A stretch of DNA of 64,000 nucleotides from a virus. The notes beneath the pieces were generated by a model. It had not been told where the DNA came from, did not search any database, and saw only the letters and a program-made list of their open reading frames with translations. The DNA lies in the IMG/VR virus record IMGVR_UViG_3300024999_000053, positions 53,964 through 117,963 of that record. One strand, 5' to 3'. Positions 21,649 through 25,397 of this stretch are shown in pieces. Each line of letters opens with the position of its first letter. Within the stretch, counting starts at the first letter, position 1. A program made the position numbers and the translations under genes.

Positions 21649-22329
21649 TCACAGTGCAAACACTAATACTTTTGCAAATAACATCAAACCACCTAATAAT
21701 ATTGAACCACCAATTATTTGTGTTTTTGCGGTTTTGCTTTCTTCTGTATCTGGCATATTATCAGGTTGAACTATAGGTGGAAATACAGGATCTTTTATCT
21801 CTTGTGTTTGTCCTGCATCTGTAGTTAAATGCGTTTTTACTTTAGATATTAATTTTTCTAGATTATCATTATCTTTAAAATGCTTTCCAATTTCTACTTC
21901 GATCTCATCAGTAACCCCTTCTGCTGTAACAGTTCTTCGATATTTAAAAATATCCTTATCATATTTTCCATTATCTGATCTGCCTTTTATTTTATTTTGT
22001 ACATATCTTCCAATTCTATCTAACCCACCTAAACTTGCTAATTGCATATTTGATGGAACTGCTACAATCATATCCCCTTTGCTTAGTTTTTTATTCCATT
22101 CTTGCAGAGTCCCGTATCCTAAACTTGGATTTGATTCCAACCAAAATATACCATTATTTTGTGGCATCGGATAAAGGTAATATAAGTTAGAATGTGTTTT
22201 AGTCACATAATCTGTTGGTGTTGCTTTTGCTACAAATGGATTTATTAATGTGATTCCAATCAATATCATCATGATAGATAATGCTAAATTTCTACGAATA
22301 GATGATTTTTTCAATATAATTAATCTCAT
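21649..22329 (-). CDS. Exported protein with N-terminal signal peptide and C-terminal membrane anchor
   Basis: Basic N-terminus, hydrophobic helix, AKA site; hydrophobic C-terminus. Confidence 0.65.
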   Translation of the reverse strand: MRLIILKKSSIRRNLALSIMMILIGITLINPFVAKATPTDYVTKTHSNLYYLYPMPQNNGIFWLESNPSLGYGTLQEWNKKLSKGDMIVAVPSNMQLASLGGLDRIGRYVQNKIKGRSDNGKYDKDIFKYRRTVTAEGVTDEIEVEIGKHFKDNDNLEKLISKVKTHLTTDAGQTQEIKDPVFPPIVQPDNMPDTEESKTAKTQIIGGSILLGGLMLFAKVLVFAL

Positions 22330-22330
22330 A

Positions 22331-22549
22331 TTAATTAATCTCCTTCATTCCCCAATTTTTATCAGTAATTGATAATTCAATAATTAATTGTCTTTTGCAT
22401 TTATTACAAACTACATCAATACTGAATGACTTGCCTATTAATTTGTTTGAATTTCCTGCATAAATCATTTCATCATTTACAATTTCTGATCCAATTAATA
22501 CAATATCTTTCCCACATAAACACTCTAAAATTTGATTCAATTTTACCAA
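22331..22549 (-). CDS. Small zinc-ribbon-like protein
   Basis: CLCG and CNKC; AAAGGAG RBS. Confidence 0.55.
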   Translation of the reverse strand: MVKLNQILECLCGKDIVLIGSEIVNDEMIYAGNSNKLIGKSFSIDVVCNKCKRQLIIELSITDKNWGMKEIN

Positions 22550-22554
22550 CTCCT

Positions 22555-23208
22555 TTATTTTAAATAACTCATTGGATCAACAGTTTTACCATTAATTCTG
22601 ATTTCAAAATGTAAATGATTGCCAGTTGAATTATTTCCAGTTGATCCGATTTCCGCAATCTTTTCGCCACTAAAAACCATTTTGTCTTCCATAACAACAA
22701 CTTTTGAACAATGAGCATACAAAGTCTCATAACCATTACCATGATCAATAATAACGTGTAATCCATATGGGCCTTCAGAATTAATAATCTTCTCAATTTT
22801 ACCTGTTCGACTAGCTTTAATCGCGTCTCCTAAATTTCCTGCAATGTCTAAACCATGATTATGTTCATTATAACCTTGTGTAATTTTACCCTTAATAGGC
22901 CAATCAAATTTTGCTCCTAAATATCTCTCCCATATATTTTTATAACCAACATCCATAGTTTCACTATTACTTTCAATTCCTAATGCATTACTAACTTTTT
23001 CCTTTCCTCCACTATAAGTCATAGCAATAGAATGAATATCATCACTAAACTGTTTTAGAGGGGCAAGAGTACATGATAAAACCATTAATCCTAGACTCAC
23101 AACTGCCAACCATTTGATTGCTAATGCCATCTCCCTACCAGACGTATGCCTAACGTAGATATACACTACTAAATATAAAGCACTCAATCTTACAAAGTTC
23201 TCAATCAT
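22555..23208 (-). CDS. Membrane-anchored M23/LytM metallopeptidase
   Basis: HHGLD-type HxxxD, YAH, HLHFE; two N-terminal TM helices. Confidence 0.9.
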   Translation of the reverse strand: MIENFVRLSALYLVVYIYVRHTSGREMALAIKWLAVVSLGLMVLSCTLAPLKQFSDDIHSIAMTYSGGKEKVSNALGIESNSETMDVGYKNIWERYLGAKFDWPIKGKITQGYNEHNHGLDIAGNLGDAIKASRTGKIEKIINSEGPYGLHVIIDHGNGYETLYAHCSKVVVMEDKMVFSGEKIAEIGSTGNNSTGNHLHFEIRINGKTVDPMSYLK

Positions 23209-23411
23209 TTAAATACTTCTTTTACTTTATTAAGGAAATCTAGAGAAGCATTTAGCACTAAGAGAGTGACAAGTATTAAACCTAATGTATCAGCATAATA
23301 TGTCCATTCACCTTTCCCAAATATTTTTAACCCCATTTTAACGACTTGTAAACCCACAGCAATGCCAAGAATAGCTAAAATTGGGGTAGCTGCTTGAATC
23401 CCTGGGAACAT
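23205..23411 (-). CDS. SpoIIIAC-like two-TM protein (68 aa)
   Basis: GKGEW...TLGLI...DFLNKVKEVF parallels SpoIIIAC GKKEY...LLGFI...DLFKKIKAVF; AAGGAGG RBS. Confidence 0.6.
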   Translation of the reverse strand: MFPGIQAATPILAILGIAVGLQVVKMGLKIFGKGEWTYYADTLGLILVTLLVLNASLDFLNKVKEVFK

Positions 23412-24127
23412 TTTAATTCCTCCTTTTTTGCCAAATGAAGTTTTAAGCAAAAGTTTCTAATCTCATCAAGATTAAGAAGTTCTATTGAATATGGAAATGC
23501 TTTATCCTTATCGATTATCTTCTGGATTTTGTTTTTTGCTGTATCACCTCCATCAGTTACAATTAAAACTACAAATGTTTGATTTTTGGACAAGTCTATC
23601 CACCAATAAGTAGAAATGCCTTGATATTTATCTTTAATTAATTTTTCTGCTAATTGATTATACTGTTTGATTTTCTTAAATTCATTACCCGATTCATATC
23701 TAGTAAATTCATTGAAATATATCTTTTTATCATTAAATGTATCAAATGTCACAAATTGGTCTGGTTTTATAATTGGTAAGAATTGAGTTGGTTCATTTTC
23801 AAAAGTAAGATTTGTATAATTACTTGCTTTAGAATTAAGGATAATAAAAGTATAAACCCATGATTTACCTAATGTGTGTTCAATATTCTTAGGTTTTTTC
23901 TCGTCAAATAACCAAAAATAATCTTTTTCTAAAAATGAAATTCTATCACCTCTCTTAATCCTATGCTTTTTCTCTAATCTCCTACAACAACGATGTGCCA
24001 TTTCAATTGAAAGACCTTGAAATTCAAGTAAATGGATTTGTGTTGTGTTCAAGCAGATACAACGTTCTAGATGTGCCAATACTCTTAAATCTCGGTAATA
24101 ACCCTTTGTATGATTTGTTTGATTCAT
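23375..24127 (-). CDS. Replication-relaxation (Replic_Relax) family wHTH/PD-(D/E)xK protein
   Basis: RDLRVL..L...LNTTQI wHTH, IEHTL, IKPD...FNE; overlaps FtsK gene as typical of this pair. Confidence 0.75.
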   Translation of the reverse strand: MNQTNHTKGYYRDLRVLAHLERCICLNTTQIHLLEFQGLSIEMAHRCCRRLEKKHRIKRGDRISFLEKDYFWLFDEKKPKNIEHTLGKSWVYTFIILNSKASNYTNLTFENEPTQFLPIIKPDQFVTFDTFNDKKIYFNEFTRYESGNEFKKIKQYNQLAEKLIKDKYQGISTYWWIDLSKNQTFVVLIVTDGGDTAKNKIQKIIDKDKAFPYSIELLNLDEIRNFCLKLHLAKKEELKCSQGFKQLPQF

Positions 24128-25397
24128 AATCGTAGACCTCCCCTTGAATATCTGTATATGGCATAGGATATTGAATTAATTTAGAGAGTAATTCTTCATA
24201 TCTATCTTGGTCTGATACTACGCTAGGAAAGTACATAGATTGAACTTCTATTTCTTCATCCCAATCAAATATTGCTCTCCCTTTTGCTTTTTTAGGGATA
24301 AATGCTGCTTTTGAATTTCCTAAAACCATATTAGAATTTATTGGGTCTTTTACACGGTATACAAGATTAGCGTCAAACATGGCTTTGAGTTCACTAAAGT
24401 TACCTATTTTGCCTAAACTATTTGCACTCGGCCTTTGAATCGCACCAATGCTAAATATACCTTGTGAACGACCTTGATGAAGTAAGCGATTAAATGATTC
24501 ATAAGCAGGAGAAGTAAACTCAGCCATCTCATCACAAATGACTACAATTGCTGGCATTTTGTTACCTAACTTTAAGAATTCAGGGAAATTTCTAGCTCCA
24601 GTTTTACTAACAATTGGCGATCTTCTGTCATTCTCATCATTAACTTGTTTTAATAATTTCTCAATATGTTGAGGTTCTTTTGCCCACATAGCACCATACT
24701 TTTCAAAATATTTAAATTCTCCTAGTTTTGGATCACATATTACTGGGATTACAGAAGGTTCTTTATCCATGCCTTTTATACTGTTTATTAGTAGCATTGT
24801 ATAAATGGCTGTATGACTGAAATTTGACTTACCACTTCCCATCATTCCACAAACGAGCAATGTTAAAATCTCTGCTAAATCCTTTACAATAAATCCATTA
24901 ATCGAATACCCAAAAGGAATAGGAATCATCATACCTTTTTTTAGATATGAAGTCGGGTCAAAATTATAAGGATACATTTTTGTTCTATTCACATTAGATA
25001 TCGTCATATGAACCGCCATTCCATGTTGCTCAATTTGACAATTGCCTGTTTCTCCTAAAGAATCTGCAAATGTTTGTTCTAATTTTTTAAAATTTTCGAA
25101 ATTTAATCCAGCAGGAAGATTAATTACAAAAAACCAAGTTTCATTATTATGTTCATCTAAACTTTTAATCCTTTGGATTACTTCTTTAATACTTTTTGGT
25201 CTTCTTAATTTAGTTTGTTCTATTAAATTTTCATCTTTTGGGTTTACAAGATGTCTCTTGATAATTATCGGTCGATAATCTTCTCCATAATGAAACACAA
25301 TTACATCGTAGACTTTTGCAGGAATCCCACCACCACGTTCTCTTCCTTTTTTCCATTGTTTAATTGCAATATCATAAGCATCCAATTTTTTTGACAT
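24024..25397 (-). CDS. FtsK/SpoIIIE-family ATPase (no N-terminal TM region seen)
   Basis: GMMGSGKS, DPK, VVICDE, GRSQG, QRP, GRA motifs; RBS GAAGGTGA before ATG 25397. Confidence 0.9.
   Translation of the reverse strand: MSKKLDAYDIAIKQWKKGRERGGGIPAKVYDVIVFHYGEDYRPIIIKRHLVNPKDENLIEQTKLRRPKSIKEVIQRIKSLDEHNNETWFFVINLPAGLNFENFKKLEQTFADSLGETGNCQIEQHGMAVHMTISNVNRTKMYPYNFDPTSYLKKGMMIPIPFGYSINGFIVKDLAEILTLLVCGMMGSGKSNFSHTAIYTMLLINSIKGMDKEPSVIPVICDPKLGEFKYFEKYGAMWAKEPQHIEKLLKQVNDENDRRSPIVSKTGARNFPEFLKLGNKMPAIVVICDEMAEFTSPAYESFNRLLHQGRSQGIFSIGAIQRPSANSLGKIGNFSELKAMFDANLVYRVKDPINSNMVLGNSKAAFIPKKAKGRAIFDWDEEIEVQSMYFPSVVSDQDRYEELLSKLIQYPMPYTDIQGEVYDYESNKSYKGLLPRFKSIGTSRTLYLLEHNTNPFT

Follow-up and report, generated by a model that had tools for sequence, protein, structure and literature searches.

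A conserved phage operon of an FtsK-like ATPase, a divergent Replic_Relax protein and envelope proteins as a candidate DNA-translocation device

What is the function of a phage operon that joins an FtsK-like ATPase and a relaxase-family protein to a set of envelope proteins? The question is raised by a 64,000-nucleotide stretch of virus DNA, here called the window, which comprises bases 53964-117963 of IMG/VR record IMGVR_UViG_3300024999_000053 (117,963 bp, linear, ~72% complete). The source is a large plasmid-like phage, and its host is an uncultured low-GC bacterium. An earlier, sequence-only reading of this DNA saw in the operon a minimal machine for moving prophage DNA into the forespore or a neighbouring cell. 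We find that five of the genes form a real conserved unit. We tentatively interpret the operon as a self-contained DNA-processing/DNA-translocation device, an expanded form of the relaxase/translocase operon of Bacillus phages, and give this interpretation somewhat less than an even chance.

The operon consists of six co-directional open reading frames (ORFs) on the minus strand, 25397-21649. Its features are as follows (aa, amino acids; TM, transmembrane; wHTH, winged helix-turn-helix).

25419..25447, minus strand: weak candidate for a sigma-70-like promoter (TATACA-17-CATAAT; 9/12 consensus matches), 5' of the ATPase gene
24024..25397, minus strand: FtsK/SpoIIIE-family ATPase, 457 aa (PF01580)
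23375..24127, minus strand: divergent Replic_Relax (MOB_C-type) protein, here RR, 250 aa, with an N-terminal wHTH and a PD-(D/E)XK-like core
23205..23411, minus strand: two-TM hairpin protein, 68 aa, with remote similarity to the SpoIIIAC family
22555..23208, minus strand: membrane-anchored M23 (LytM) domain protein, 217 aa (PF01551)
22331..22549, minus strand: Cys-rich (CxC...CxxC) protein, 72 aa, an accessory Zn-ribbon ORF
21649..22329, minus strand: exported protein Exp226, 226 aa, without a match to known families
21612..21633, minus strand: terminator-like hairpin and T-run at the operon end

The genes are tightly packed and partly overlapping, as the sequence-only reading had stated. The ATPase and RR genes overlap by 104 nt, the RR and hairpin genes by 37 nt, and the hairpin and M23 genes by 4 nt; the two genes after M23 follow at distances of 5 nt and then 1 nt. 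The conserved, dual-coding ATPase/RR overlap is unusually long. Window positions 24024-24127 hold the end of the ATPase gene and the start of the RR gene in two frames, both conserved at the protein level, and the Shine-Dalgarno sequence of RR, AAGGxGAGGT, sits within near-invariant G-E-V codons of the ATPase gene. A promoter scan of the region found no more sites than in shuffled sequence, and the site listed above is a candidate only. An ORF for a hydrophobic protein of 60 aa lies before the ATPase gene (25501-25683). We considered it as a core gene and rejected it; it is kept only in the closest relatives.

Is this arrangement a chance grouping of genes? Profile-guided scans for relatives of the ATPase gave 17 viral loci and two loci in metagenome-assembled genomes (MAGs), with ATPase identities of 38-96% and a locus GC of 30-43%. 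By tblastn, the genes for the ATPase, RR, M23 protein and Exp226 are collinear and on the same strand in 18 of these 19 loci; the nineteenth, L021, is truncated by the contig end after the ATPase gene. Every one of the 18 complete loci has a two-TM ORF of 68-74 aa between RR and M23, with its stop overlapping the M23 start, and every one keeps Exp226 (tblastn). The 104-nt ATPase/RR overlap recurs with its internal Shine-Dalgarno sequence in 15/18 loci; it is 110 nt long in L012, and 101 nt in L009 and L010, where the alignment lacks the start-codon beginning. The Zn ribbon, which had been counted as a member of the module, is an ORF of the window operon but an accessory one, found by tblastn in L008 and L011 only (2/18 complete loci). 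The flanks vary from locus to locus: ParM/ParR adjoins the operon in L005 and L007, and L017 has TnpB and another neighbourhood. The fixed order, the coupling and the differing flanks over 18 loci indicate that the five-gene core of ATPase, RR, hairpin, M23 protein and Exp226 is a real, selected unit and not a product of chance.

The core is also found in a different kind of phage. L017 lies in G065, a complete (100%) 67-kb phage genome with direct terminal repeats, in which the five-gene core is present and no tyrosine recombinase, serine recombinase or actin-like protein (ALP) was found. Hence, the module is not tied to an SPbeta-like backbone or to ParM. The TnpB/Cas12f-like gene of L017 (7712-8833, minus strand; OrfB_IS605 and TNB domains) lies directly upstream of the module.

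The putative motor is FtsK-like and soluble, as had been proposed. It passes the PF01580 cut-off (33.8 bits; cut-off 24) and matches phrog_1358 (6e-39). Its Walker A (G184-x2-G187-x-G189-K190-S191) and Walker B (D289-E290) motifs are invariant in 15 homologues, as are the FtsK-type motif columns. Hydropathy gives no N-terminal TM anchor; the sole hydrophobic stretch, residues 168-187, leads into the Walker A strand. The nearest solved relative is 6o1x, a conjugative "DNA translocase coupling protein" (6.6e-9), with FtsK slightly behind (3e-8). All NCBIfam matches (EssC, TraB, EccC, FtsK) are far below threshold, with 24.2 bits for the FtsK model (cut-off 1566) and 28.8 bits for the plasmid_TraB model (cut-off 800). 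No FtsK_gamma domain was matched at E<=0.1, and XerCD activation by the ATPase is thus unsupported. By these searches the ATPase shows neither of the two marks of the chromosomal translocases FtsK and SpoIIIE proper, the TM anchor at the N-terminus and the C-terminal gamma domain that reads KOPS or SRS. The predicted complex of ATPase and RR scored 0.00 and points neither way. We also considered and rejected a role in defence: PADLOC gave the ATPase generic FtsK-domain matches alone (mad8, SspH), and gave no match for the five other operon proteins or the neighbouring 544-aa protein.

By profile comparison, RR is a divergent Replic_Relax (MOB_C-type) protein, for which nicking is predicted only. 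Its own match to PF13814 (Replic_Relax) is below the cut-off (15.4 against 25.3 bits) and covers only the wHTH, residues 17-57, and 6/9 homologues match PF13814 weakly (best E 0.0084). A family profile of 14 sequences nonetheless aligned with seven bona fide Replic_Relax proteins over 149 columns (hhalign Prob 89.9, P 1.7e-6); the score of 49.4 compares with 15.3 for the reversed control and at most 17.9 in 40 shuffles. The invariant residues H84, P122-D123 and E140 of RR align with the H, PD and E positions in the bona fide members, and its protein-language-model (Atlas) neighbours are "replication-relaxation family" clusters (score 0.93). Thus, the assignment of RR in the sequence-only reading holds for the profile and the motifs, but not at the Pfam threshold. 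That reading's further statement, that no canonical MOB relaxase is present, is misleading, since PF13814 is treated as part of the MOB_C relaxase superfamily (PMC5357655). A search of PDB sequences with the RR profile gave nothing at E<=10, and neither RR nor Exp226 had a tblastn match in 50,697 GenBank phage records.

Is the hairpin protein related to SpoIIIAC of the sporulation channel, as the sequence-only reading suggested by eye? The 68-aa protein has two hydrophobic helices by hydropathy. A phmmer search of 1.84 billion representatives found six relatives, with SpoIIIAC not among them. Its sole NCBIfam match is TIGR02848 (SpoIIIAC; E 1.7e-4, 22 bits against a cut-off of 56.65), in which hairpin residues 12-68 align with model positions 7-63 of 64. 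The window hairpin itself has no Pfam match, but PF06686 is the top Pfam family of the 15-member hairpin family, with 2/15 members matching at E<=10 and the best match below the cut-off (homologue P0036, E 6.3e-4, 20.3 against 24 bits). We aligned the hairpin family with 22 distinct SpoIIIAC sequences from the spoIIIA loci of 41 genomes and obtained an hhalign score of 24.3 (P 2.2e-4, 55 columns). Reversed profiles scored 11.4-12.7, 100 full and 100 within-segment column shuffles reached at most 17.2, and real two-TM decoys (the M23 N-terminus and Bacillus-phage hairpins) scored 8.6-15.9; the positive control, SpoIIIAC against SpoIIIAD, scored 36.3. Furthermore, when a custom SpoIIIAC hidden Markov model (HMM) was run on all 1,449 ORFs (45 aa or longer) from the window and the 19 loci, five hairpin genes of one subgroup, A, took ranks 1-5 (E 1.4e-5 to 6.8e-3; next ORF 0.13), and the window hairpin was the top match (1.4e-5).

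The signal has clear bounds. It is carried by subgroup A; against SpoIIIAC, hhalign gives 16.5 for subgroup B and 11.1 for subgroup C, even though the subgroups are homologous to one another (A-B Prob 98.9, B-C Prob 95.8). The reverse HMM search, from the hairpin, matched SpoIIIAC in 1/41 genomes (E 0.03). A PF06686 search of five viral records gave nothing at E<=10, and Pfam and NCBIfam scans found no other SpoIIIA family (AA, AB, AE, AF, AG or AH) in the operon. Together, these comparisons indicate that the hairpin is a remote member of the SpoIIIAC superfamily and not an orthologue, with a similarity that is statistically supported although it lies below curated cut-offs. In literature listings we found no phage-borne spoIIIA genes, and the main text of PMC10294663 contains neither spoIIIA nor spoIIQ. 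By the searches made here, the hairpin would be the first SpoIIIAC-like protein outside a spoIIIA operon.

The M23 protein is far above the PF01551 cut-off (96.9 bits; cut-off 28.7) and has a strong TM segment at residues 26-52 by hydropathy. The sequence-only reading described this peptidase as intact and SpoIIQ-like, and its N-terminus as similar in layout to SpoIIIAC; none of the three descriptions survives. The Zn-site motif, which we take to be the H of HxxxD, the D and HxH, is incomplete. In the window protein the segment reads N117-H118-G-L-D121, and a PDB alignment places N117 opposite the ligand His of HxxxD; the remaining ligands, D121 and H198-x-H200, are present. Within the M23 family the first ligand position is H in 10/14 aligned copies and N in 4/14. 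The NCBIfam SpoIIQ model NF053738 gives 52.9 bits against a cut-off of 250 and ranks 10th of 14 M23 models, and generic M23 peptidases are the better matches in the PDB (1.2e-15, against 8.2e-8 for SpoIIQ). The domain is therefore best classed, by these scores, as generic and not SpoIIQ-like. The N-terminal TM region has no similarity to SpoIIIAC or SpoIIIAD (hhalign 9.8 and 10.0). PHROG labels of the M23 domain include endolysin, and we found no counterpart of the operon's M23 and exported proteins in cultured phages.

Exp226 agrees with its earlier description as an anchored exported protein. Its signal-like N-terminal helix is followed by an alpha/beta domain of ~150 aa, from which a linker rich in Pro leads to the TM anchor at the C-terminus. 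It matches no family in Pfam, NCBIfam or Atlas, and has one PHROG match (E 0.004). The 72-aa Cys-rich protein has weak PHROG matches alone (E 0.005-0.01).

Does the phage encode a conventional conjugation apparatus? No AAA_10/VirB4 (PF12846) match exceeded the cut-off in the 118-kb record or in four related records, including the complete G065, which bears out and extends the earlier statement that VirB4 is absent from the window. The lone sub-threshold match (12.7 bits) is to a 479-aa frame on the module strand, probably that record's FtsK-like gene. What the window does contain is the gene set of a plasmid-type, SPbeta-like phage. Its GC is ~26-33%, and its SPbeta-type replication genes include a PolIII alpha gene 43% identical to SPbeta YorL, together with RecD2-, RecJ- and DnaB-like genes and NrdD. 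A tyrosine recombinase gene is in the source record but outside the window. The features that bear on the plasmid and lysis functions are listed below.

26214-27233: Alp7A/ParM-like actin gene of the plasmid block, with a small partner gene beside it
28220-28933: DnaD/Rep-like initiator gene of the plasmid block
4946-5650, plus strand: Amidase_3 endolysin gene

The operon adjoins the ParM/Rep block divergently in the window, in L005 and in L007. The closest DNA sources listed for the window are groundwater and sediment metagenomes. Among the runs listed are ten DNA-type metagenome runs from five studies and no RNA sequencing run. Megablast found no near-identical DNA in GenBank phages or PLSDB plasmids.

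Taken together, gene content, conserved order, translational coupling, family similarities and the absence of VirB4 are the observations from which we start. We propose that RR would recognise a site on the phage-plasmid and nick or cut it, and would pass the DNA to a hexameric motor formed by the TM-less FtsK-like ATPase. Two proteins would hold this motor at the membrane: the M23 protein through its TM region, and the SpoIIIAC-like hairpin, which would probably assemble into an oligomeric ring in the membrane. The M23 domain would open or grip the peptidoglycan locally, and Exp226 could serve as outer contact or scaffold. The outcome would be export of phage-plasmid DNA across the cell envelope or septum without a VirB4-type type IV secretion system (T4SS), with a neighbouring cell or a forespore as recipient. 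Nicking, anchoring of the motor, the pore and the direction of transfer are thus predictions from sequence. The earlier idea of a translocation module stands in so far as it concerns a conserved, VirB4-less relaxase-translocase operon with envelope proteins in a phage with ParM/Alp7A and Rep, but not in its SpoIIQ-like part.

Several points weigh against export. Transfer would need an undescribed pore or the T4SS of a helper element, because there is no VirB4; nothing recognisable as VirB6 or VirB8 turned up either, and no separate search was aimed at these two. The repeat search in and beside the operon gave chance-like pairs only and no repeats like those of oriT or clt (its parC-like repeats are part of the partition block). 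Peptidoglycan cutting by the window M23 protein is uncertain, because the first Zn-ligand His is missing. AlphaFold2 models of RR (9-row alignment) and Exp226 (13 rows) have predicted local distance difference test (pLDDT) values of 43.2 and 51.4, too poor for fold comparison. Deletion of a related operon from phage 0305phi8-36 gave no laboratory phenotype (PMC3357382). The position of the operon beside the ParM/Rep block also fits an intracellular maintenance role, and RefSeq labels the Bacillus-phage homologues "replication initiation protein". A replication-initiator role is not needed, since the window has a separate Rep and a full replisome.

Could the operon instead maintain the phage-plasmid inside the cell? 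RR and the motor would then act on replication intermediates, initiating or resolving them, or would remove plasmid copies caught in the closing division septum, where the membrane proteins would only position the motor. We regard this as unlikely. The divergent Alp7A/ParM-ParR-Rep block next to the operon in three loci and the tyrosine recombinase in the record suit such a role, and the Izhevsk and Novomoskovsk papers class Replic_Relax, FtsK and ParM as plasmid replication/segregation genes (PMC7685451, PMC9658697), in keeping with the RefSeq name. Yet no gamma domain was detected in the ATPase, the complete G065 has the module without a tyrosine or serine recombinase and without an ALP, and the virulent phages 0305phi8-36 and SPO1 carry relaxase/translocase operons too (PMC3357382). 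It is also hard to see why a purely cytoplasmic device should include a protein that is exported and anchored, or an M23 domain that lies outside the membrane. Alternatively, the operon could be two unrelated cassettes, an FtsK-like/Replic_Relax pair and a set of holin-like hairpin, signal-anchored M23 protein and surface protein for accessory lysis, superinfection exclusion or wall remodelling. In pairs of a holin with a signal-arrest-release endolysin, a small protein with two TM segments likewise comes before a peptidoglycan hydrolase tethered to the membrane, and "endolysin" is among the PHROG labels of M23. One hairpin member matches Phage_holin_Dp1 (E 0.1), but the best family match of the hairpin is SpoIIIAC and not a holin. 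Moreover, a separate Amidase_3 or Amidase_2 endolysin is present in 5/5 records, so that the hairpin and M23 protein are probably not the main lysis cassette, and five genes keep one order with overlapping or abutting frames in 18 loci despite differing flanks. Two cassettes therefore seem quite unlikely to us.

The recipient that the sequence-only reading favoured is the forespore. In this view, the sporulation septum or the engulfing membrane would be the site at which the module brings the extrachromosomal prophage into the forespore, and the hairpin would dock on the host SpoIIIA-SpoIIQ channel or imitate a part of it; we judge this improbable. SpoIIIAC is the hairpin's sole detectable family in two HMM libraries of ~43,700 models, but the similarity is remote (22 against 56.65 and 20.3 against 24 bits), is restricted to subgroup A, and has little echo in the PF06686 and reverse searches described above. 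B. subtilis SpoIIQ lacks one Zn ligand, as the window M23 protein does; the latter is nonetheless not SpoIIQ-specific, and proteins like SpoIIIAA, AB, AE, AF, AG and AH are absent from the operon. Plasmid partition genes in the phage would suit inheritance through the spore, whereas genes for small acid-soluble spore proteins were found in 0/5 records and a sigma-factor domain (Sigma70_r2) in 1/5, not that of the window. A still bolder version, that the hairpin is a genuine phage-borne SpoIIIAC offshoot and the operon a VirB4-independent conduit that uses or imitates the mother cell-forespore channel and brings the plasmid prophage into the spore, is very improbable in our view. If true, it would be the first DNA-transfer device built from SpoIIIA-type membrane parts and an FtsK-type motor.

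Evidence on hosts bears on the same question. The sole link to a genome, L022, sits in a Bacillota MAG with spoIIIAC/AD, which 41/41 sampled genomes of its class also have. Among GenBank phages, a bona fide FtsK-linked Replic_Relax query found 26 records by tblastn, nearly all of them annotated beside an FtsK/SpoIIIE-type ATPase; the hosts are Bacillus, Geobacillus or Cytobacillus in 23 and are labelled Staphylococcus or Stenotrophomonas in three, a tally biased to near relatives of the Bacillus query. The sequence-based checks proposed earlier gave nothing contrary to the earlier reading: the hairpin has SpoIIIAC similarity, no relative is tied to a non-sporulating host, and the L022 MAG has spoIIIAC/AD; the hosts are uncultured. 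Staphylococcus phage SpaA1 (HE614281.1 / NC_018277.1) and Stenotrophomonas phage TS-12 (MW302330.1) have a Replic_Relax/FtsK pair with 46-47% identity, like B. cereus-group phages, which points to DNA of Bacillus-type phages filed under a different host name. A match to a Listeria "phage", a candidate non-sporulating host, was not used; it is an UNVERIFIED_ORG 4.4-kb wastewater contig.

Other genes of the window merit description in their own right. Next to the operon, a gene on the minus strand (19874-21508) encodes a 544-aa, acidic and lysine-rich protein with an ILDGNHR motif, which we take to be ParB/DndB-like, and a match to phrog_5732 (E 8e-29); it has no Pfam, NCBIfam or PADLOC family match. 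It is probably a separate unit, because terminator-like hairpins precede (21633-21612) and follow it (19857-19819). Relatives of this gene adjoin the operon in two loci, L005 and L007; in L008 the relative is upstream and on the opposite strand. Further on, a 677-aa Cys-rich protein (17780-19813, plus strand) resembles phrog_4538 (2.8e-62) and PHROGs of homing endonucleases; towards its C-terminus are three similar repeats of ~80 aa each, and its relatives lie at differing positions in L005-L007. Directly 5' of the Amidase_3 endolysin gene, a gene at 3517-4908 (plus strand) codes for a protein of 463 aa that matches the papain-type family Peptidase_C1 (9.4e-7).

How does the operon compare with known systems? 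Phage operons of relaxase, translocase and membrane anchors have been in print since 2012, with cell-to-cell transfer proposed for them. The "DNA translocation operon" that Pathria et al. described in phage 0305phi8-36 encodes a relaxase of the MobC type, a coupling ATPase without a TM domain and, separately, membrane proteins. They suggested that it serves transfer between cells in biofilms, and reported the relaxase family, with partial versions of the operon, also from SPO1, GBSV1, Bacillus virus 1 and Gamma/Cherry/Fah/Wbeta (PMC3357382). The words spore, sporulation and forespore are absent from the text of PMC3357382. In both operons, a MobC/Replic_Relax-type relaxase adjoins a TM-less translocase ATPase, membrane proteins lie within the operon and an actin-like gene is near. 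In contrast, the ATPase of 0305phi8-36 is AAA_10/VirD4-like and its membrane parts are VirB6-like and MreB-like, whereas the window has an FtsK-like ATPase and an envelope set of SpoIIIAC-like hairpin, M23 protein and anchored exported protein.

A related gene set is found in phages of Bacillus and Geobacillus and in a Priestia plasmid, where the last part of an unannotated ORF just 5' of the FtsK-like gene encodes a two-TM hairpin (L024 3579-3866, L025 3409-3843, L065 3459-3851, L064 4689-4988). One such hairpin protein has been termed TrbC/VirB2-like (PMC9658697). Since the hairpin recurs there upstream, we consider hairpin, TM-less FtsK-like ATPase and Replic_Relax protein a general triad. 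Like the window operon, the Bacillaceae/Priestia triads (268TH007, GBSV1, PK2, PfEFR-4, BtCS33) have a TM-less FtsK-like gene, an overlapping Replic_Relax gene and a small two-TM protein. ATPase identity is 23-28%, and RR aligns with four triad members alone at hhalign Prob 40.6, against 89.9 with the wider set. The triad hairpin precedes the ATPase, unlike that of the window, and its profile resembles neither the window hairpin nor SpoIIIAC (scores 8.6-14.7). The triads also lack an M23 or exported protein, have overlaps of 4-20 nt and not 104 nt, and stand beside integrase and repressor genes. As judged from gene content and order, the window operon is a reordered triad to which M23 and exported proteins have been added.

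TcpA has N-terminal TM helices, unlike the window ATPase. In TcpA-type modules of Firmicutes integrative and conjugative elements (ICEs), integrative and mobilizable elements (IMEs) and pCW3, an FtsK-related single-domain ATPase stands immediately upstream of a non-canonical relaxase, with an upstream position as in the window (PMC5357655). In the survey of Coluzzi et al. 2017, MOB_C relaxases pair with VirD4 and never with TcpA, and these ICEs, IMEs and pCW3 rely on their own or a helper's VirB4-containing T4SS (PMC5357655), of which none was found in the five phage records. The SpoIIIA-SpoIIQ channel shares with the operon a two-TM hairpin of 65-68 aa that has G-[KR]-x-E in its loop and VKxVF in its tail, and a LytM-domain membrane protein (PMC2703783, Doan et al. 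2009). However, the window hairpin is far below the family cut-offs and outside a spoIIIA operon, its neighbours being FtsK-like, Replic_Relax and M23 genes. The window ATPase is FtsK-like and not of the SpoIIIAA type, counterparts of AB, AE, AF, AG and AH are absent, and the M23 protein is nearer to generic peptidases than to SpoIIQ.

Streptomyces TraB resembles the operon in its single FtsK-like motor without a T4SS and its small membrane proteins. To our knowledge, TraB systems have no relaxase and transfer dsDNA; in the window, by contrast, the motor is in close coupling with a nuclease of a relaxase family. Compared with the relaxase/translocase operons known from phages of spore-forming Bacillota, the operon has three further envelope proteins, whose genes keep a constant order and are coupled in translation, and it has no VirB4. 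On these grounds it is a more complete candidate than any before it for a DNA-export device that a phage encodes and that works independently of a T4SS. If it moved phage-plasmid DNA between cells or into spores, it could also shed light on the role of SpoIIIAC/AD hairpins in the sporulation channel, and it would give phages a virion-free route of spread or persistence.

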